Assembly: GCF_044324785.1 (NCBI RefSeq)
Contig: NZ_CP172127.1
Length of the DNA stretch: 64,000 nt
Strand: one strand, 5' to 3'
DNA from: Escherichia coli
GTDB taxonomy: Bacteria; Pseudomonadota; Gammaproteobacteria; Enterobacterales; Enterobacteriaceae
Below are positions 34,394-45,036 of this stretch, piece by piece. Numbering within the stretch: position 1 is the first letter of the stretch; the number at the start of each line of letters is the position of its first letter. The position numbers were made by a program, and so were the translations under genes. The notes under the pieces are model-generated. The model did no database searches, had not been told where the DNA came from, and worked only from the letters and a program-made list of their open reading frames with translations.

Positions 34394-35320
34394 ATGCTCC
34401 CGCCTTATTTTTTGTTCAACGAGATGACAGACACACACTATATTGGCCGCTTTGCCCCCTCTCCTTCCGGCGAGCTTCATTTTGGTTCTCTGATTGCCGC
34501 GCTTGGCAGCTATTTACAGGCTCGCGCCCGGCAAGGTCGCTGGCTGGTACGCATTGAAGATATCGACCCGCCTCGTGAAGTTCCCGGTGCCGCAGAGACT
34601 ATCCTGCGCCAGCTGGAACATTACGGTCTGCACTGGGACGGCGACGTTCTCTGGCAATCGCAACGTCACGACGCCTATCGCGAAGCACTCGCCTGGTTAC
34701 ATGAGCAAGGACTAAGTTATTACTGCACCTGCACGCGCGCGCGTATTCAAAGCATTGGCGGTATTTACGACGGCCATTGCCGGGAATTGCATCATGGACC
34801 AGACAACGCCGCAGTACGTATCCGCCAGCAGCATCCGGTCACTCAATTTACTGACCAGCTGCGCGGCATTATTCACGCCGACGAAAAACTGGCGCGGGAA
34901 GATTTTATTATTCATCGCCGTGATGGTTTGTTTGCCTATAACCTGGCGGTGGTGGTGGATGATCACTTCCAGGGCGTGAGCGAAATTGTCCGCGGGGCAG
35001 ATTTGATCGAACCAACTGTGCGGCAAATCTCGCTGTACCAGCTTTTTGGCTGGCAAGTGCCAGATTACATTCATCTTCCGCTGGCGCTTAATCCACAAGG
35101 CGCTAAACTTTCCAAGCAGAATCATGCGCCTGCGTTGCCGAAAGGCGATCCGCGCCCGGTACTAATCGCGGCACTTCAATTTCTGGGTCAGCAGGCAGAA
35201 GCACACTGGCAGGATTTCAGCGTCGAGCAAATCCTTCAGTTAGCCGTCAAAAACTGGCGGCTTACCGCCGTGCCTGAGTCGGCAATTGTAAATTCAACAT
35301 TCTCAAATGCGTCATGCTGA
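34394..35320 (+). CDS. gluQ: glutamyl-Q tRNA(Asp) synthetase
   Basis: 308-aa ORF; class I aaRS HIGH-like motif in [15 protein letters not shown]; an alternative start at MTDTHY (34424) is possible. Confidence 0.9.
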
Positions 35321-35379
35321 GCTATGATTAGCCGCTATTTTTTTGTCCTGAATGATGTTTGACACTACCGAGGTGTACT

Positions 35380-36777
35380 ATTTTTACCCGAGTCGCTAAT
35401 TTTTGCCGCAAGGTGCTAAGCCGCGAGGAAAGCGAGGCTGAACAGGCAGTCGCCCGTCCACAGGTGACGGTGATCCCGCGTGAGCAGCATGCTATTTCCC
35501 GCAAAGATATCAGTGAAAATGCCCTGAAGGTAATGTACAGGCTCAATAAAGCGGGATACGAAGCCTGGCTGGTTGGCGGCGGCGTGCGCGACCTGTTACT
35601 TGGCAAAAAGCCAAAAGATTTTGACGTAACCACTAACGCCACGCCTGAGCAGGTACGTAAACTGTTCCGTAACTGCCGCCTGGTGGGTCGCCGTTTCCGT
35701 CTGGCTCATGTGATGTTTGGCCCGGAGATTATCGAAGTTGCGACCTTCCGTGGACACCACGAAGGTAACATCAGCGACCGCACGACCTCCCAACGCGGGC
35801 AAAACGGCATGTTGCTGCGCGACAACATTTTCGGCTCCATCGAAGAAGACGCCCAGCGCCGCGATTTCACTATCAACAGCCTGTATTACAGCGTGGCAGA
35901 TTTTACCGTCCGTGATTACGTTGGCGGCATGAAGGATCTGAAAGACGGCGTTATCCGTCTGATTGGTAACCCGGAAACGCGCTACCGTGAAGATCCGGTA
36001 CGGATGCTGCGCGCGGTACGTTTTGCCGCCAAATTGGGTATGCGTATCAGTCCTGAAACCGCAGAACCGATCCCTCGCCTGGCTACCCTGCTGAACGATA
36101 TCCCACCGGCACGCCTGTTTGAAGAATCTTTGAAACTGCTGCAAGCGGGCTACGGTTACGAAACCTATAAGCTGCTGTGTGAATATCATCTGTTCCAGCC
36201 GCTGTTCCCGACCATTACCCGCTACTTCACGGAAAATGGCGACAGCCCGATGGAGCGGATCATTGAACAGGTGCTGAAGAATACCGATACGCGTATCCAT
36301 AACGATATGCGCGTGAACCCGGCATTCCTGTTTGCCGCCATGTTCTGGTACCCACTGCTGGAGACGGCACAGAAGATCGCCCAGGAAAGCGGCCTGACCT
36401 ATCACGACGCTTTCGCGCTGGCGATGAACGACGTGCTGGACGAAGCCTGCCGTTCACTGGCAATCCCGAAACGTCTGACGACGTTAACCCGCGATATCTG
36501 GCAGTTGCAGTTGCGTATGTCCCGTCGTCAGGGTAAACGCGCATGGAAACTGCTGGAGCATCCTAAGTTCCGTGCGGCTTATGACCTGTTGGCCTTGCGA
36601 GCTGAAGTTGAACGTAACGCTGAATTGCAGCGTCTGGTGAAATGGTGGGGTGAGTTTCAGGTTTCCGCGCCACCAGATCAAAAAGGGATGCTTAACGAGT
36701 TGGATGAAGAGCCGTCACCGCGTCGCCGTACTCGTCGTCCACGCAAACGCGCACCGCGTCGTGAGGGTACCGCATGA
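35380..36777 (+). CDS. pcnB: poly(A) polymerase I, initiating at a non-canonical AUU codon
   Basis: ORF track opens at TTG 35359 ([15 protein letters not shown]...); the K-12 protein (465 aa) begins at the ATT at 35380-35382 ([13 protein letters not shown]...), the known non-canonical pcnB start; this position gives exactly 465 aa. Confidence 0.9.
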
Positions 36778-37253
36778 CAGTGGCGTATATTGCCATAGGC
36801 AGCAATCTGGCCTCTCCGCTGGAGCAGGTCAATGCTGCCCTGAAAGCATTAGGCGATATCCCTGAAAGCCACATTCTTGCCGTTTCTTCGTTTTACCGCA
36901 CTCCACCGCTGGGGCCGCAAGATCAACCTGACTACCTCAACGCCGCCGTGGCGCTTGAAACCTCCCTCGCCCCGGAAGAGTTACTCAACCATACACAGCG
37001 CATAGAGCTGCAACAGGGTCGTGTTCGTAAAGCGGAACGCTGGGGACCGCGTACGCTGGATCTCGACATCATGCTGTTTGGTAATGAAGTGATAAATACC
37101 GAACGTCTGACCGTTCCGCACTACGATATGAAAAATCGTGGCTTTATGTTGTGGCCGCTGTTTGAGATTGCGCCGGGACTGGTGTTTCCTGATGGAACAG
37201 TATTAGGAAATTTATTAAAAATAAATAAATTTCATGAATTAAACAAATGGTGA
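36774..37253 (+). CDS. folK: 2-amino-4-hydroxy-6-hydroxymethyldihydropteridine pyrophosphokinase (HPPK); C-terminus differs from the K-12 sequence as I recall it
   Basis: 159-aa [52 protein letters not shown]...; ATG overlaps the pcnB stop (ATGA); last 20 codons are very AT-rich. Confidence 0.93.
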
Positions 37254-37600
37254 TTTAATGATTTCATGAATATAAATAAATTCCGAAAAATAACCTTACC
37301 CATTGCAATTAATATATTCCCTAAGCTACAACCATAATTAATATTATATACCCCGCTAACACCTTCTACCTCACATACAATATTTCTTCCGCTTTGTACA
37401 TTAAGCTTTACTTAAAGATGAATTAAGTGGATATATAAATTTAAATATGCACAATATCCCACTTGGTGATGAACAGATGTTACATTCAGTAAATCTTCAC
37501 ATTCATCATTAACAAACCAATCTATTTTTCTCTATCGGGGTTCTTTGTCTGAAAGTACCCGATCGTAGTTAAACTCATGGAATATGATTCAAGGATTATT
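37254..37600 (+). promoter_or_regulatory. AT-rich upstream regulatory region of the fimbrial operon
   Basis: About 350 bp of strongly AT-rich sequence with direct repeats (ataaataaat and ttcatgaat each occur twice, 37221-37282), typical of H-NS-silenced chaperone-usher promoters; no specific promoter elements assigned. Confidence 0.4.
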
Positions 37601-38173
37601 ATGTCTAAAAAATTAGGTTTTGCCCTGTCTGGTCTAATGCTGGCAATGGTTGCAGGTACTGCTTCTGCTGATATGGACGGTGGTCAGATTAACATCAGTG
37701 GCTTGGTTAGCGATAACACCTGTGAAACAAAAGTTGATGGCGGCAAGCAAGATGGCCTGGTTCTTCTGCAAACTGCAACGGTTGCTGAAATTACCGCTGG
37801 TGTATCTGAAACTGCTGTCGGCGCCAAAGCGAAACCGTTTAGCATTACTGTAGACTGCAGCAAAGCGACTCCGGGAGGCCAACCGACTCTGACATTCGGT
37901 TCAGTCTTCTTTGGTAACAGTCGTGGCACTTTGAATAACGATATGTCCATCACCACCCCGTCATCTGGTGTGAATATCGCCCTGCACAACATTGACGGCA
38001 CCACGGTTAAACAAGTCAAAATTAATAATGCATCTGATGCTTACACTAAAGCATTAACCAATAATGTTGCAGTCTTTGACTTCAAAGCCTCCTATGTTCG
38101 TGAAGACAACTCAACACCAGCAACGGCTGGTTATGTAAGAACCAACACAGCTTACACCATCACCTACAATTAA
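37601..38173 (+). CDS. yadN: fimbrial major subunit (YadN-type pilin)
   Basis: ORF track 198 aa; start at ATG 37601 ([23 protein letters not shown], signal peptide) preceded by AAGGA; C-terminal beta-strand motif TAYTITYN. Confidence 0.85.
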
Positions 38174-38265
38174 GTTATTCGTTGGTGATTTAAATTACTA
38201 CAAGGGTGCGACACCTATTGTCGCCCCCTTGTCTTGAAAACAATTCATGTCATGGATGGTATATT

Positions 38266-38997
38266 TTGTTAAATAAAAAGAATATTGTCGCATTATGTGT
38301 TGTCAGTAGTATGGCATTTAGTATGCCTGTTATGGCCGATATTGTTATTTCCGGTACACGCGTCATTTATAAAAGTGATCAAAAAAGCGTTAGCGTACGC
38401 CTGGAGAATAAAGGCAATAGCCACCTGTTAGTACAAAGCTGGCTGGATACCGGTGACGATAACGCTGAGCCAGGAAGCATTAATGTACCATTTACGGCAA
38501 CACCTCCCGTTTCACGTATTGATGCTAAACGCGGTCAAACCATCAAATTGATGTATACCGGCAGTACCGTACTCCCCAGCGATAAAGAAAGCGTATTCTG
38601 GTTTAACGTGCTGGAAGTGCCCCCAAAACCAGATGCTACAAAAGTGGAGAATCAGAGCCTGTTACAACTGGCTTTCCGTACCCGTATCAAGCTGTTCTAT
38701 CGTCCGGCAGGATTAAACGGTAACCCGTCTGAAGCACCATTAGCCCTGAAATGGAAATGGGCTGAAGGGAAGTCTGGCCTGAGTGTATATAACCCAACAC
38801 CTTATTACGTCTCTTTCAACAGCGCAGAGTTAATCGCTGGCGGTAAGTCGAACCCGCTCAACGTAAAAATGATTGCACCGAAAAGCGAAGAGATTTTCAC
38901 CATAAGCGGTTCAGGCGGGAAAGCAACGTCAGGAAAGGTACATTTCTCAGCGATCAATGATTTTGGCGGCGCAATTGAAGGCGATGTCAATTTGTAA
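38266..38997 (+). CDS. yadV: periplasmic fimbrial chaperone (PapD-like, EcpD/YadV-type)
   Basis: ORF track starts at GTG 38206; a TTG at 38266 gives LLNKKNIVALCVVSSMAFSMPVMA signal followed by DIVISGTRVIYKSDQKSVSVRLENKG (PapD-like pilus chaperone N-domain); exact start uncertain. Confidence 0.8.
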   Translation: MLNKKNIVALCVVSSMAFSMPVMADIVISGTRVIYKSDQKSVSVRLENKGNSHLLVQSWLDTGDDNAEPGSINVPFTATPPVSRIDAKRGQTIKLMYTGSTVLPSDKESVFWFNVLEVPPKPDATKVENQSLLQLAFRTRIKLFYRPAGLNGNPSEAPLALKWKWAEGKSGLSVYNPTPYYVSFNSAELIAGGKSNPLNVKMIAPKSEEIFTISGSGGKATSGKVHFSAINDFGGAIEGDVNL

Positions 38998-39031
38998 GAC
39001 CAGGGACCTTATGCAGCAGGAAGCCAATGTA

Positions 39032-41632
39032 ATGAAAACAACGACATCGACTAAACGCCATAATCTTACGCGTATCGCAATGTATTGCTCAATTATGTAT
39101 AGCGGCGCTACCATCGGAGCCGAAAGCGTTGAGTATGACCCTACCTTTTTAATGGGTGGCAACGCTTCCAGTATTGATGTTAGCCGCTATAGCGATGGCA
39201 ACCCGACTTTGCCTGGTGTTTACGATGTTAGCATCTATGTTAACGAGCAACCTGTTGCTAACCTGGAGATCCCCTTTATCGCGATCCCCGAAAAAAAGAA
39301 TGCTCAAGCCTGTATTACCCTGAAAAATCTACTACAACTTCATATCAAGCCCCCCCCGGCAGACGAGGAAAATACTATCCTTCTTCCACGGGATGAAACG
39401 CTTGGCAACTGTCTTGACCTGTCGTTAGCCATACCTAAATCCTCAGTGAGCTATGACCCCTCTGAACAACGTCTGGATATCAATGTTCCCCAGGCGTGGG
39501 TGATGAAGAATTATCAAAACTATGTGGACCCATCACTTTGGGAAAATGGCATTAACGCGGCTACGCTGTCTTATAACATCAACGCTTATCGCAGTGAAAA
39601 TTCAAATTATACAAATGATAGCGTTTATACATCGTTCAATGGTGGCGTCAATTTAGGTGCCTGGCGTCTGCGTAGCAGCGGTAACTATAGCTGGAGAAAC
39701 GACGCGGGAAGCAATGTTGAGTTTATGAATCGCTACGTCCAGCGCGACATTACCGCTATTCGCTCGCAGCTCATTATGGGGGAATCCTACACCACAGGTG
39801 AAACGTTCGATTCCGTTAGTATCCGCGGCATTCGCTTATACAGCGATAGCCGAATGCTGCCGCCAGTATTGGCAAACTTCGCCCCAACAATTCGTGGTGT
39901 AGCGAATACCAACGCCAAAGTCAGCATTACCCAGGGTGGATACAAAATTTATGAAACCACTGTTCCACCGGGACCTTTTGTCATTGATGATCTCAGTCCG
40001 TCAGGGTATGGCAGCGATCTTATCGTAACCATTGAAGAAGCTGATGGCAGCAAGCGTACATTTTCTCAGCCATTTTCTTCAGTAATTCAAATGCTGCGCC
40101 CGGGTGTTTCTCGCTGGGATATCAGCGGCGGGCAAATTAATAAAGACGACTTGCATCATGAACCAAACTTACTACAAGCGACCTATTACCGTGGTTTAAG
40201 TAACCTGTTCACTGGCTATACTGGTTTTCAGGTCACAGATAATCATTATGCTGCAGGCTTACTTGGCATTGGGATGAATACTTCTGTCGGCGCAATTTCC
40301 TTCGATGTCACCCACTCCAGTGTCGATATACCGGATGATAAAAGGTACCAGGGGCAAAGCTATCGCATCTCCTGGAACAAATTTTTTGACCTGACAGATA
40401 CATCATTAAACATCGCGGCTTACCGCTACTCCACGCAGGACTATCTGGGCCTGAATGATGCATTAACACTTATTGATGAAGTTGAACATCCCACTCAGGA
40501 TCTTGATCCCAAAACTATGCGCAACTACGGGCGCATGAAAAACCAGTTCACCGTAAGCATTAACCAACCGCTACGCTTTGGGAAGGATGATTATGGCTCG
40601 TTCTATACCTCTGGAAGCTGGTCTGATTACTGGGGGGGCGGTAAGAGCCGTAGCAACTATTCGGTCGGCTACAGTAACAGCGCTTCATGGGGAAGCTACA
40701 GTATCAGCGCTCAACGATCCTGGGATGAGTACAGCCAAACAGAAAACAGTATTTACCTCAGCTTTTCGATACCTATCGAAAAACTGATGGGTACGGAGCA
40801 CCGTGATTCCGGTTTCCAAAGTATTGATACACAACTTAGTACCAATATGGATGGTAATAATCAGTTCAACATGAGCAGTAGCGGTTATAGCAACGATAAT
40901 CGCGTGAGCTATAGCGTGAACGCGGGTTATGGGATGAATAAAACCGGCAAAGATCTCAGCAACATCGGGGGTTATGCCAGCTATGAATCGCCATGGGGAA
41001 CGCTAGCTGGGTCAGTCTCTGCTACCAGCGATAATAACCGCCAGTACTCCGTTAATACAGATGGTGGATTTGTGTTGCACAGCGGAGGACTTACGTTCAG
41101 CAACGACAGTTTCAGTGATAATGACACCATTGCTCTGGTTAAAGCACCGGGTGCAAAAGGGGCGCGTATTAACTACGGCAACAATACCGTTGACCGTTGG
41201 GGATATGGCGTAACCAGTGCTCTTTCACCATACCAGGAAAACAAAATTGCTCTGGACACTGAAAACCTGGAAAACGACATCGAAATGAAGAGCACCAGTA
41301 CAGTTGCCGTACCACGCCAGGGCTCGGTTATCTTTGCTGGTTTTGAAACCAATCAGGGACAATCTGCGATTATGAATATCAAACGCAGTGACGGAAAAGG
41401 TATCCCCTTCGCCGCCGATATTCATGATGAAACAAATGCAATCATTGGCAACGTTGGGCAGGGCGGGCAGGCATTTGTTCGCGGTATTCAGCAGCAGGGC
41501 ACGATAAAAATCACCTGGCTGGAAGCCAGCATGCCCAAAACCTGTATTGCGCAGTACCAGCAACCCAATGTGACATCGGAGAAAATCCAGCAAACGATTA
41601 TTCTCAATAATATTCTTTGCCAGCTCCAATAA
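39032..41632 (+). CDS. htrE: outer-membrane fimbrial usher (HtrE/YadU-type)
   Basis: ORF track 891 aa from 38957; start at ATG 39032 (MKTTTSTKRHNLTRIAMYCSIMYSGATIGAESVEYDPTFLMG) follows the chaperone stop and has AGGAAG upstream; 866 aa. Confidence 0.88.
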   Translation: MKTTTSTKRHNLTRIAMYCSIMYSGATIGAESVEYDPTFLMGGNASSIDVSRYSDGNPTLPGVYDVSIYVNEQPVANLEIPFIAIPEKKNAQACITLKNLLQLHIKPPPADEENTILLPRDETLGNCLDLSLAIPKSSVSYDPSEQRLDINVPQAWVMKNYQNYVDPSLWENGINAATLSYNINAYRSENSNYTNDSVYTSFNGGVNLGAWRLRSSGNYSWRNDAGSNVEFMNRYVQRDITAIRSQLIMGESYTTGETFDSVSIRGIRLYSDSRMLPPVLANFAPTIRGVANTNAKVSITQGGYKIYETTVPPGPFVIDDLSPSGYGSDLIVTIEEADGSKRTFSQPFSSVIQMLRPGVSRWDISGGQINKDDLHHEPNLLQATYYRGLSNLFTGYTGFQVTDNHYAAGLLGIGMNTSVGAISFDVTHSSVDIPDDKRYQGQSYRISWNKFFDLTDTSLNIAAYRYSTQDYLGLNDALTLIDEVEHPTQDLDPKTMRNYGRMKNQFTVSINQPLRFGKDDYGSFYTSGSWSDYWGGGKSRSNYSVGYSNSASWGSYSISAQRSWDEYSQTENSIYLSFSIPIEKLMGTEHRDSGFQSIDTQLSTNMDGNNQFNMSSSGYSNDNRVSYSVNAGYGMNKTGKDLSNIGGYASYESPWGTLAGSVSATSDNNRQYSVNTDGGFVLHSGGLTFSNDSFSDNDTIALVKAPGAKGARINYGNNTVDRWGYGVTSALSPYQENKIALDTENLENDIEMKSTSTVAVPRQGSVIFAGFETNQGQSAIMNIKRSDGKGIPFAADIHDETNAIIGNVGQGGQAFVRGIQQQGTIKITWLEASMPKTCIAQYQQPNVTSEKIQQTIILNNILCQLQ

Positions 41633-41644
41633 TACGAAAGAGAG

Positions 41645-42211
41645 ATGACAATGATAAAAAACTCACGGTATAAAATAGTACTCCTGACAGGCATTTTTTT
41701 ACTGCCCGGCGCACTGGCACAAGATATTAATGTTGATTTTGTTGCCACAATCAAAGGCACGACATGTAATATCACTCTGGAAGGGACACGCGTCACCGCT
41801 GATGGAAATAATCAGTACACGCTACGGATATTAAATGTTGCTCTGGATAAAATCATAAACAAGATGCCAGAAGCACAAGCCGACTTTAAACTGGTCGCTA
41901 ATTGTGATGGTAACATAGGCAAGATTACGACATCGCTGGCAGGGAATCCTTCAGGAGAGTTACCCTATTTAATTTCTCCATTAACTTCAGATAATTCATC
42001 CACCACAGAATATATTGCTATGGGGATTAAACTTCGAAATACCTCTGACACTGAATTTATTCCCCCAGATGGTTCTAAAAAGATTTCCTGGGGAGAGGGA
42101 TTAACAAAACCGGAACTTGAGATGACGGTAGCACTTCGCGAAACCCGACCAGGTTCAGGAAGAGCAGGTAGTTTTAAAGCACTTGCGACATTCAATTTCA
42201 CCTATGAATAA
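41645..42211 (+). CDS. fimbrial minor subunit (YadM-like)
   Basis: 188-aa ORF MTMIKNSRYKIVLLTGIFLLPGALAQD...; signal peptide and pilin C-terminus ATFNFTYE; the start may instead be ATG 41651. Confidence 0.8.
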   Translation: MTMIKNSRYKIVLLTGIFLLPGALAQDINVDFVATIKGTTCNITLEGTRVTADGNNQYTLRILNVALDKIINKMPEAQADFKLVANCDGNIGKITTSLAGNPSGELPYLISPLTSDNSSTTEYIAMGIKLRNTSDTEFIPPDGSKKISWGEGLTKPELEMTVALRETRPGSGRAGSFKALATFNFTYE

Positions 42212-42224
42212 AAGGATAATAATA

Positions 42225-42824
42225 ATGCAGATGAAATCATTACATTATGGGATATTTGCAAGCATTACTCTGAGCTTATTATTATTCAGCACGTTTTCTA
42301 TAGCCATCACTGATAACATTGGCCTAAACGTTATGACCATTGTTGAAAACAGAACTTGTCAAAGCGAAATCAACAACCAGGGGTTGGTTAATCTTGGCAC
42401 TGTTGGAGTGGGATATTTTGCCAGTAATGTTAGTGCGGAAGATAATTATCCAGGCGGAAAAACCTTTACTGTGACAGTAAAAGATTGCCCCTCCGCTGGC
42501 ACAACATCAAGTCAGTTGCATATAGAATTTAAACCTGTCAGTGGTGTAATGGCCACTGGTAGCCAACAGATATTCGCCAATAATCATGTCGGCGGCGCAC
42601 AAAATGTAGGAATCGTTATTTTTAGCCAAAATAATCAGTCATCGGATACAGTGAATGTGCTGTCACCAACAGGGCAGTTTCGCACGGTCTGGCCTGTTGT
42701 CTCTGCGAATATGAATAATTCATCGTGGCAATTTTATACACGAATGCAGAAAATAGATCCGTTACTCCCGGTTGGTGCAGGATTTGTTACCAGTAACGTA
42801 TTAGTTGATATTTATTATCAATAA
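42225..42824 (+). CDS. fimbrial minor subunit (YadL/YadK-like)
   Basis: ORF track from 42183; start at ATG 42225 (MQMKSLHYGIFASITLSLLLFSTFSIA) preceded by AAAGGA; 199 aa. Confidence 0.78.
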   Translation: MQMKSLHYGIFASITLSLLLFSTFSIAITDNIGLNVMTIVENRTCQSEINNQGLVNLGTVGVGYFASNVSAEDNYPGGKTFTVTVKDCPSAGTTSSQLHIEFKPVSGVMATGSQQIFANNHVGGAQNVGIVIFSQNNQSSDTVNVLSPTGQFRTVWPVVSANMNNSSWQFYTRMQKIDPLLPVGAGFVTSNVLVDIYYQ

Positions 42825-42877
42825 TTATGCTAAGCATAATGCTTCTACAAATATTATTTTTTCAAAGGAGTGATAAG

Positions 42878-44128
42878 ATGAAGTCAGCGTTCCGATACTT
42901 TATTTTTTTATGGATTATCACAGCCAGCATTAATAATGTAAATGCTGGAAGTCTTACTTTTATGGTCGGTAACGATGCTGGCATAGGAAACACGCACGGC
43001 CCAACAGGCGATAAACTAATATCATTTGCCTATCCGGTTGGTGGAGTAAACAATATTGTATTTTATGATCCAACATCAGACACACCGACCGATGCAAAAA
43101 TAAAATTATATTGGAGTGAACTGGACACATCAAGTAGCGGTGGGACTGTATATTGTACTTCAAAAGATAATTCCAGCGGTGTGCCAATTACTGTCCGGCA
43201 TCAGATGGTTTACTCAGGAAAAATGGCAGATGGGCACAAATTATATGAAACCAATGTTACCGGTCTATATTATACGTTAATGCTCAATAAATTCTGGTCG
43301 TATGAACTTCTCTCAAGCTCTCCAGATATGTACGTTGGAGACGACGGCTGGCACACTGTACAATTTTATATTACGGGTAATTATATGCGAGGTCAATGTA
43401 ATACTAAAAATATACAAGCCGTCGGGGGCCTTGCTCACGATGCTACAGTGAAATTCTATACCGACAGAACTTTTAACCCTGCTCCAAATACTAACGTGCA
43501 ATTAAAACACACTGGTGATTATTTGTATTCATTCGAAAATGAAGGACCAGGGAATCCAAATGTAAAGTATTCTAAGAAACTATTCGTAGATTTTAAATTA
43601 ACAGACATCAAAATCCAACTGCCAACATGCTTTACGTCTATCCTTTTGGGTGAGAGCGTAACGCGATCAACCGTAAATCTCGGGGAATATACTGTTGGAC
43701 AGATCACCTCAGATTCTGCAACACCTGTTAATTTTCAGATTTCGCTACAAAATTGTGTTCGAATAAGTAGTATTAAAACAAAACTAAAATCTAATGTAGT
43801 AGGAGTGAATAATCCTCTGTTGCTTGGTAATACTTTGACAGGAACCGATGATGCAAAAGGTGCCGGAGTACTTATTGAAGGGTTACCCAATAGCAAAAAT
43901 TCACAAAATTTCACGCTTAAGCCAAATGATGAGACGTCAAGCTATAACGATGCTGAAGATGATCCTGGAGAAAACAATGGAATTTATAACCCAGATTATC
44001 CTAATGCCAACGGTCGTACTACAACCCAGGACCTGAAATTTCAGGCAACATTAAAACGCGATGGTAATGCAACTGTGAAACCCGGCGGATTTAAGGCTAC
44101 CAGTACATTCCAGGTCACCTACGAGTAA
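42878..44128 (+). CDS. yadC: fimbrial tip adhesin-like subunit (YadC-like)
   Basis: ORF track 433 aa from 42827; start at ATG 42878 (MKSAFRYFIFLWIITASINNVNA) preceded by AAGGAG; 416 aa with pilin-like C-terminus STFQVTYE. Confidence 0.8.
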   Translation: MKSAFRYFIFLWIITASINNVNAGSLTFMVGNDAGIGNTHGPTGDKLISFAYPVGGVNNIVFYDPTSDTPTDAKIKLYWSELDTSSSGGTVYCTSKDNSSGVPITVRHQMVYSGKMADGHKLYETNVTGLYYTLMLNKFWSYELLSSSPDMYVGDDGWHTVQFYITGNYMRGQCNTKNIQAVGGLAHDATVKFYTDRTFNPAPNTNVQLKHTGDYLYSFENEGPGNPNVKYSKKLFVDFKLTDIKIQLPTCFTSILLGESVTRSTVNLGEYTVGQITSDSATPVNFQISLQNCVRISSIKTKLKSNVVGVNNPLLLGNTLTGTDDAKGAGVLIEGLPNSKNSQNFTLKPNDETSSYNDAEDDPGENNGIYNPDYPNANGRTTTQDLKFQATLKRDGNATVKPGGFKATSTFQVTYE

Positions 44129-44140
44129 CAGGTTTAACCG

Positions 44141-44170
44141 CACCGCCATCATCTGGCGGTGCTGTAATTG
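44141..44170 (+). terminator. Hairpin terminator after the fimbrial operon
   Basis: caccgcc (44141-44147) / ggcggtg (44155-44161), then ctgtaattgat. Confidence 0.4.
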
Positions 44171-44241
44171 ATAAATCATTGCCCCCACCAATGTGACTGA
44201 TAAAATGCCAGACAGCACGACATTACTTATCAGGATACGTT

Positions 44242-45036
44242 ATGAAACCAACCACTATTGCTTCATTGCAGAAATGCAAGCAGGACAAAAAACGTTTCGC
44301 GACAATAACCGCTTACGACTATAGCTTCGCAAAACTGTTTGCCGATGAAGGGCTTAACGTGATGCTGGTCGGCGATTCACTGGGCATGACGGTTCAGGGG
44401 CATGACTCCACGCTACCGGTTACCGTTGCTGATATCGCCTACCACACTGCCGCCGTACGTCGCGGTGCGCCAAACTGCCTGCTGCTGGCTGACCTGCCGT
44501 TTATGGCGTATGCCACACCAGAACAAGCCTTTGAAAACGCCGCAACGGTTATGCGTGCCGGGGCCAACATGGTCAAAATTGAAGGCGGTGAGTGGCTGGT
44601 AGAAACCGTACAAATGCTGACCGAACGTGCCGTTCCTGTTTGTGGTCACTTAGGTTTAACCCCACAGTCAGTGAATATTTTCGGCGGCTACAAAGTCCAG
44701 GGGCGCGGCGATGAAGCGGGCGATCAACTGCTCAGCGATGCATTAGCATTAGAAGCGGCAGGCGCACAACTTCTGGTGCTGGAATGCGTACCGGTTGAAC
44801 TGGCAAAACGTATTACCGAAGCGCTGGCGATCCCGGTTATCGGTATTGGCGCAGGCAACGTTACCGATGGACAGATCCTCGTGATGCACGATGCGTTCGG
44901 CATTACTGGCGGTCATATCCCTAAATTTGCCAAAAATTTCCTCGCTGAAACGGGCGACATCCGCGCGGCTGTGCGGCAGTATATGGCTGAAGTGGAGTCC
45001 GGCGTTTATCCGGGCGAAGAACACAGTTTCCATTAA
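44242..45036 (+). CDS. panB: 3-methyl-2-oxobutanoate hydroxymethyltransferase
   Basis: 264-aa [63 protein letters not shown]... Confidence 0.97.

Follow-up and report, generated by a model that had tools for sequence, protein, structure and literature searches.

The 18-residue C-terminal tail of FolK, encoded by the 3' end of folK in a stretch of 64,000 nucleotides (nt) from Escherichia coli (contig NZ_CP172127.1 of RefSeq assembly GCF_044324785.1; the whole stretch is called the window), is probably the left edge of an old, recombining and hypervariable segment, the fimbrial operon between folK and panB. The locus is the yad site of E. coli. The FolK C-terminus of the window is one common allele of a multi-allelic system and not a private rearrangement, and the phenomenon can be described as hitch-hiking divergence beside a hypervariable locus, a real but fairly ordinary spill-over. 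The features concerned are the following:

36774-37253, + strand: folK, open reading frame (ORF) encoding a FolK protein of 159 amino acids (aa)
36774..37196, + strand: conserved HPPK body (folK codons 1-141), with FPDG at its end
37197..37253, + strand: folK tail, consisting of the hypervariable codons 142-159 (37197-37250) plus the TGA stop codon (37251-37253)
37254..37600, + strand: intergenic region between folK and yadN, AT-rich and regulatory for the fimbrial operon, with a GC content (GC) of 0.30; its sequence is identical to that of strain N3 and 92-100% identical to that of strain S1-ZIM

Among 5,426 complete E. coli genomes, 5,424 have a match to the folK gene of the window by megablast, with one folK place in every genome with a match. 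In about 4,300 of these 5,424 genomes, the match ends at query base 422, which is position 37195 of the window and lies in the Gly141 codon of FPDG. Alignments made by segment, with identities taken in 60-nt blocks, give 88-98% identity to other alleles in the blocks before the tail and 38-60% over the tail itself, the drop being at 37174-37233. Nine fetched E. coli genomes carry seven different tails, and at least ten tail versions are found in Escherichia. The tails of the fetched genomes, with megablast counts among the 5,426 genomes, are:

K-12 tail: EMLRQILHTRAFDKLNKW; its family is present in 2,988 genomes
AR434 tail: ETLREVLHTRAFDKLSKW
Window, N3 and S1-ZIM tail: one shared 18-residue type, in about 450 genomes, including that of enteroaggregative E. 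coli (EAEC) 042
ST131 tail: an 18-residue type of its own, in about 554-607 genomes
THO-006 and Nissle tail: LSLVEALQAKGFNELDKW, in 560 genomes
O157:H7 tail: ETLREILTSLAVLQPAIWY, in about 398-437 genomes
2017-02-2CC tail: ETLQVILTKLNTIQPEIW, in 1 genome

These counts leave about 400 of the 5,426 genomes in none of the listed types. More tail versions occur in E. coli SCPM-O-B-8794 and E69, in E. albertii, in E. whittamii and in Escherichia sp. MOD1. All tails align without gaps and almost all give a protein of 159 aa, with L144, L148 and a Trp at 159 in register. The FolK of O157:H7 has 160 aa, its gene ending in TGG TAT TAG. In O157:H16 strain Santai, TGG TAA is found at the same place, and the spacer contains about 70 nt of additional, inserted sequence. 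The tails of K-12, the window, ST131 and Nissle form a superfamily which has the ending ...FxxLxKW and a common 22-nt element downstream, and which is without the ancestral AEKPA motif (see below). E. coli 2017-02-2CC shares its FolK tail with the E. whittamii representative and has unusually divergent flanks, with a synonymous divergence (dS) of 0.28 in pcnB, which suggests an inter-species import or a borderline species assignment.

In composition, the tail resembles its downstream neighbour more than the gene it belongs to. Its GC is 0.17, compared to 0.54 in codons 1-141, 0.30 in the 347 intergenic nt and 0.51 in the whole window. It is AT-rich at every codon position (GC1/2/3 of 0.22/0.17/0.11), and 8 of its 18 residues are F, Y, M, I, N or K, with only 1 of the 18 being G, A, R or P. 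The K-12 FolK ends in ...ELVFPDGEMLRQILHTRAFDKLNKW, from which the end in the window differs. A first-pass annotation of the window had given this K-12 ending, and hence a differing C-terminus in the window, correctly, as confirmed by the HPPK chains in the PDB and by K-12 strain MC1061. It had also let the variable fimbrial segment begin inside the 3' end of folK, which agrees with the stop of the megablast matches at Gly141 and with the tail travelling together with the intergenic DNA. The AT-rich end was rightly seen as continuous with the fimbrial upstream DNA, but it was taken to be 20 codons long and the divergent part comprises 18 (142-159). The terminal LNKW, described as kept, is indeed present in K-12, the window and ST131 and limited to this one allele superfamily; the other alleles end in QPAIWY, QPEIW or LPRW. 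Finally, the C-terminus was called rewritten. The tail is variable as proposed, but a replacement by unrelated fimbrial DNA does not fit tails that align ungapped in a protein of 159 aa and keep L144, L148 and the Trp.

Upstream of the tail, FolK of the window is an ordinary HPPK. Pfam HPPK (PF01288) matches residues 5-134 over the full profile (1-116 of 116) with an E-value of 8.5e-39 and a score of 133 bits against a gathering cut-off of 25.7, and the best PDB match is with the E. coli HPPK chains (E about 1e-95). In an alignment of 36 sequences including the window protein, D96, D98, R83, R93, H116 and R122 (Met1 numbering) are invariant, and the catalytic and ligand-binding residues, i.e. 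the two Mg-binding Asp and the phosphate-binding Arg and His, are all located before residue 141. After P139, only W159 is invariant in this alignment. The tail lies outside the Pfam envelope, is not part of the conserved domain and probably makes no contact with substrate, and alignments with distant HPPKs of the PDB reach no further than about residues 133-141. The AlphaFold (AF2) model predicts a short helix at 144-150 and a low-confidence end. For the Francisella tularensis HPPK, the listed substrate contacts reach only Arg127 in the numbering of that protein, and monofunctional HPPKs are described there as ending after helix 4 (PMC2994781). Just before the tail, Glu135 is changed to Gly (GGA for GAG, 37176-37178), which among the fetched E. 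coli alleles is found only in the window and N3. A 524-nt contig in an assembly of Terrisporobacter mayombei (Firmicutes) encodes part of a FolK with 92% identity to that of E. coli, most likely a contamination of that assembly.

Natural insertions indicate how much of the tail end can be lost. In three complete E. coli genomes, insertion sequences (IS) are found within the last 3-9 folK codons, with a loss of 3-8 residues and of the terminal Trp. An IS1 copy in strain 23CRST024 changes ...FDKLNKW to ...FDKLVMTPTY, giving a FolK of 162 aa, and another in strain LB858871 changes ...LQPAIWY to ...LQTCR (158 aa). An IS10-like element in strain F8111-1SC3 truncates FolK after residue 151. The folK gene is essential in E. 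coli. Since the isolates carrying these insertions are viable and have one folK place, the conserved terminal Trp is dispensable for viability, and LNKW is not required, because IS1 replaces its NKW with VMTPTY in a sequenced isolate.

Next, divergence along the locus was compared. Within E. coli, the folK body has a nonsynonymous divergence (dN) of 0.006-0.036 and a dS of 0.19-0.70, corresponding to a dN/dS of about 0.02-0.05, and between allele families the tail has a dN of 0.4-1.4 with a dS of about 1. Towards the locus, dS rises from 0.03-0.10 in sfsA and 0.02-0.04 in dksA to 0.10-0.26 in gluQ, 0.07-0.28 in pcnB and 0.19-0.70 in the folK body. The dN of pcnB to other E. coli is at most 0.003 over its dS range. 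Synonymous divergence is thus raised in the flanking core genes and decays with distance, as in hitch-hiking, with gluQ being patchy. For gluQ (34394-35320), dS is 0.21 to K-12 and AR434 and about 0.10 to other strains, so that this flank is patchy and forms no smooth gradient. Because high dS is already present in the folK body, pcnB and gluQ, the edge at codon 142 is partly the end of protein constraint; it marks where the protein ceases to be under purifying selection, superimposed on a genuine recombination junction. The two upstream features that matter here are:

35359..36777, + strand: pcnB, flanking housekeeping gene with raised synonymous divergence, based on the ORF and on the annotation of the identical N3 stretch
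36929..37055, + strand: mosaic patch inside the folK body, also delimited as 36934-37053 (120 nt), in which about 20% of the nucleotides differ from those of most alleles

The mosaic patch is 77-85% identical to K-12, ST131, S1-ZIM, THO-006 and O157 and 93-97% identical to AR434. Its differences are almost all synonymous and the proteins hardly differ there. Compared to S1-ZIM, the window differs at 31 sites in 36929-37178, after which a stretch of at least 112 nt is free of differences (P about 2e-4, Poisson). The window is equal to strain N3 from 35614 through 37635, covering pcnB, folK and the spacer, and diverges from it inside yadN from 37636. From this position on, it is 98-100% identical to the six-gene operon of S1-ZIM-01-A, the locus overall being 97% identical over 18.9 kb. 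The window is therefore a recombinant, switching from an N3-like to an S1-ZIM/042-like sequence in the yadN signal-peptide region. In the genome collection, the best match to 37196-38173 reaches 98.4%, and the exact combination of the window is present in no genome. N3, S1-ZIM and the window have the tail and the spacer in common, although the folK body (S1-ZIM) or the fimbrial genes (N3) differ, and the tail plus the intergenic region form one recombination module. At least six types of fimbrial operon are found between folK and panB, with a yadN identity down to 25-60% between types.

A comparison with other enterobacteria gives an indication of the older state. In 21 enterobacterial species (Citrobacter, Salmonella, Enterobacter, Klebsiella, Leclercia, Kluyvera and others), panB follows about 120 nt after the folK stop codon. 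The FolK tails of these operon-free species have the consensus xxLxxxLxxL(N/G)AEKPAxW and a GC of 0.47-0.67. Deviant tails are found in taxa with a fimbrial operon after folK, namely Escherichia species, Pseudocitrobacter vendiensis, Citrobacter werkmanii and Superficieibacter, and within Escherichia the operon-associated tails are AT-richer. In sequence as well as GC, the tails form a graded series from the ancestral type (0.5-0.67) via MOD1, P. vendiensis, E. albertii, O157 and K-12 to the window allele. On the other side of the operon, the last 70 nt or so 5' of panB align well between the E. coli types and genera in which folK and panB are directly adjacent. As this panB-proximal DNA is conserved, the variable segment begins at folK codon 142 and stops about 70 nt short of panB.

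Taken together, these observations can be arranged in the following course of events. In the ancestral state, folK would have been followed by panB about 120 nt further on, and FolK would have had a GC-rich end of the type ...LxxLNAEKPAxW. A fimbrial operon may then have been inserted at this folK-panB junction, a direction of change which we infer from the comparison of species. In the operon-bearing lineages, the last 18 codons would have diverged almost neutrally, with the AT bias of the adjacent regulatory DNA, which is reported to be silenced by H-NS in K-12 and in extraintestinal pathogenic strains, since they encode a dispensable appendage that is not part of the catalytic HPPK domain. 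Homologous recombination would shuffle tail-intergenic modules and fimbrial gene sets among strains, crossing over to the left in the conserved folK body and to the right either in the conserved yadN signal-peptide region or in the panB promoter. The divergence presumably took place largely on homologous sequence and not by overwriting, as the ungapped tails, the near-constant 159 aa, the kept register and the graded series favour homologous divergence and exchange over unrelated DNA. Positive selection on the FolK tail was considered as well and found to be unsupported, given a dN/dS of at most about 1, a cytoplasmic enzyme and dispensable last residues.

In a different scenario, the junction of the operon or cassette would lie inside folK itself, and foreign AT-rich DNA would have supplied a new in-frame C-terminus by non-homologous overwriting. 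The GC of the tail, continuous with and even below that of the intergenic region, is in line with this, as is the superfamily of K-12, the window, ST131 and Nissle, which bears no trace of AEKPA and shares both ...F-x-x-L-x-K-W and the 22-nt element. Moreover, of the spacer that ancestrally separated folK and panB, roughly the first 50 nt can be recognised on neither side of the operon. Unrelated DNA, however, would rarely match both length and hydrophobic register, and the alleles align without gaps, all but one having 159 aa (O157 has 160) with L144 and L148 in register and Trp at 159. The tails also grade from the ancestral type through the intermediates named above, so that overwriting appears unlikely. 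Alternatively, the C-terminus of HPPK could be unconstrained everywhere, with nothing but proximity linking it to yad. In line with this, conservation of FolK is lowest in the tail whichever sequences are compared, and the Pfam domain does not include it. Yet identity among the nine E. coli alleles is 95.5% over residues 1-141 and 38% over the tail, whereas the 21 operon-free species, at 86% in residues 1-141, keep a tail consensus with 54% identity. A tail that is more diverse in one species than across many genera largely rules out plain relaxed constraint. The occurrence of deviant, AT-richer tails in taxa with a fimbrial operon after folK, the dS gradient and the mosaic breakpoints argue in the same direction, making proximity on its own a very improbable explanation.

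The first-pass annotation had also pointed out a swapped direct repeat around the folK stop codon. The elements involved are:

37221..37239, + strand: repeat copy 1 (ATAAATAAAT + TTCATGAAT), inside the tail
37262..37281, + strand: repeat copy 2 (TTTCATGAAT + ATAAATAAAT), with the order reversed, downstream of the stop codon
37268..37289, + strand: conserved element of 22 nt (GAATATAAATAWWTTCYGAAAA), beginning 14 nt downstream of the folK stop codon

The repeat is present where it was described, with ATAAATAAAT at 37221 and 37272 and (A)TTTCATGAAT at 37229/37230 and 37261/37262, and each of these words of 10-11 nt occurs only twice in the 64-kb window. In principle it could be the trace of a rearrangement from which the C-terminus arose, for example by duplication, by an inversion-like shuffle or as the footprint of a mobile element, since the two words recur within 60 nt in opposite order. 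In 100-nt stretches simulated with a Markov-1 model and the composition of 37196-37600, the chance of an 11-mer repeat or of two families of at least 9-mers is 0.3-0.7%. With the composition of the 100 nt itself, the same chance rises to about 6%, and as the repeat was picked after reading 64 kb it is only marginally beyond chance. Copy 1 is present in the tails of the window/S1-ZIM and ST131 types and absent from those of K-12, AR434 and THO-006, and the TTTCATGAAT half of copy 2 is found only in the window/N3/S1-ZIM allele. The ATAAATAAAT half of copy 2 belongs to the 22-nt element, in which 19 of 22 positions are invariant across seven allele families, in surrounding intergenic DNA that is 35-60% identical. 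The element occurs at the same offset in eight loci and in each of the yad-proper families; O157, 2CC and all of the outgroups lack it. In the window it is found once, against 0.01 expected. It contains a TATAAA box and a TTCNGAA palindrome. The repeat is not a junction footprint, because copy 2 sits in the 22-nt element of families without copy 1, and because ST131 has copy 1 without the TTTCATGAAT of copy 2. It is no target-site duplication either, the words being swapped in order and 32-51 nt apart without an element in between, and no mobile-element sequence is seen between or beside the copies. A rearrangement of this kind as the origin of the C-terminus has therefore next to no probability.

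Another possibility is that the DNA of the tail serves a double purpose. The tail would be the upstream edge of an H-NS silencing platform or promoter region of yadN, in which AT-rich or curved DNA is selected and the C-terminus follows passively. According to a study of promoter islands (PMC3661553), the K-12 yadN/folK island starts at 156927, has a length of 379 bp (156927-157305) and is bound by H-NS in all cited chromatin immunoprecipitation (ChIP) studies. In the K-12 records the tail starts at 157309, so the island ends 4 nt from the start of the tail, assuming that the coordinates of the paper match those records. The word TAAATAAATT, found in each of the two repeat copies, agrees at 8 of 10 positions with the H-NS consensus TCGATAAATT (PMC3661553). 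In extraintestinal pathogenic E. coli (ExPEC), yad is repressed by H-NS, variation of yad from strain to strain is reported as well, and H-NS occupancy is reported for the yad region of CFT073 (PMC13245861); the searched text of that paper has 0 occurrences of folK. A selected regulatory role would also suit a tail that is more AT-rich than the intergenic region and is inherited with it as one module. Furthermore, a terminator scan gave no terminator-like site between the folK stop codon and yadN. Since an intrinsic terminator is missing after folK, pcnB-folK transcripts may read into the fimbrial leader. The only terminator-like site in the scan lies inside the coding region, at 37121-37141, and a search of 36700-37700 against Rfam with permissive thresholds gave no match. 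On the other side, AT-richness is also expected from mutation bias on unconstrained DNA, and the GC of E. coli tails ranges from 0.17 to 0.46, so no particular composition is required. Such a double use is rather doubtful, and it extends the explanation by hitch-hiking divergence and does not exclude it. If true, the tail allele would co-determine the strength of yad silencing and possibly folK read-through into yadN.

Several points weigh against the tail being the recombining left edge of the fimbrial segment, or narrow what can be said about it. The viability of the strains with insertions indicates tolerance of the loss of 3-8 residues and not of the whole 18-residue tail. AEKPA is wholly missing from the tails of K-12, the window, ST131 and Nissle, so that a one-off replacement in the ancestor of this superfamily keeps a small probability. 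Estimates of dS and dN over 18 codons are noisy and saturated, so that an older and a faster divergence of the tail are inseparable, and the jump in dS between the last 40 body codons and the tail comes from an informal comparison. The linkage between tail type and fimbrial type is based on a dozen genomes plus BLAST coverage statistics. In this allele, cover of the tail by H-NS would be an expectation by analogy with other alleles. A simple sigma-70 promoter scan of 37100-37700, which also bears on the double use of the DNA, was not enriched, with 1 site against 3.0 +/- 1.8 in shuffles, PlatProm being the algorithm that defines promoter islands.

The remaining parts of the locus were annotated as follows. 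On the + strand, the gene order is dksA, gluQ, pcnB, folK, an AT-rich spacer of 347 nt, the chaperone-usher operon, panB and panC. Downstream of the spacer, the features are:

37601..38173, + strand: major fimbrial subunit, YadN-like, of the S1-ZIM type (Pfam Fimbrial, PF00419)
38206-38997, + strand: chaperone (Pfam PapD_N/PapD_C)
38957-41632, + strand: usher (Pfam Usher/PapC_N/PapC_C)
41645-42211 and 42183-42824, + strand: further fimbrial subunits (ORFs; the region is 97% identical to the annotated S1-ZIM locus)
42827-44128, + strand: adhesin-like gene (ORF), the last gene of the operon
44129..45036, + strand: right-hand boundary, i.e. about 70 nt 5' of panB and then panB (44242-45036), conserved with other genera

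With a major subunit, a PapD-like chaperone and an usher encoded in series, as indicated by the Pfam families, this is a chaperone-usher operon. It is the six-gene S1-ZIM/042-like variant, which after the major subunit extends over 38206..44128. IS1 copies also interrupt the yadC-like adhesin gene in strain AR434 and the yadN region in strain MDK6L1, and IS1 seems to insert often in the AT-rich yad locus.

The essential enzyme HPPK has long been studied as an antibacterial target, and nearly all structural work on it has been done with the K-12 sequence. Natural E. coli have many FolK C-termini, in at least six allele families, and about 45% of the complete genomes are outside the K-12 tail family. 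This is relevant for construct design, typing and annotation, as FolK proteins of 159, 160 and 162 aa and a truncated one of 151 aa are all real. In addition, the tail and the 22-nt element could be used to mark the type of yad regulatory region. The locus also offers a countable case in which the divergence of an H-NS-silenced adhesin locus penetrates a core gene, with its edge exactly at the end of protein constraint. In the searchable literature, no description of a hypervariable folK tail or junction was found apart from the promoter-island list.

Parts of this picture resemble known systems. In fused HPPK-DHPS proteins such as that of F. tularensis (PMC2994781), a linker after helix 4 leaves the active site unchanged, which fits the tolerant C-terminus described here. 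The extra sequence in these fusions serves as a tether, whereas the FolK appendage has no known role. As reported by Panyukov and Ozoline (2013; PMC3661553), the K-12 promoter island reaches into the last 53 nt or so of folK, and the progressive AT enrichment proposed in that paper fits the AT-biased tail. Their work deals with one strain and with transcription signals, and addresses neither allelic diversity nor an effect on FolK. The Yad fimbriae (yadN-ecpD/yadV-htrE-yadMLKC) occupy the same site between folK and panB as the operon of the window, with the same gene order and the same Pfam families, but those of K-12 or ExPEC are encoded by a seven-gene operon and the window has the six-gene variant. 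The classic example of hitch-hiking divergence next to a surface-antigen locus is gnd beside the rfb O-antigen cluster of E. coli and Salmonella. Like folK, gnd is a core gene beside a recombining surface locus, with high synonymous divergence, mosaic alleles and a decay with distance. In contrast to gnd, the spill-over at folK alters the protein itself, affecting the whole 18-residue C-terminus and having a sharp edge where protein constraint ends.

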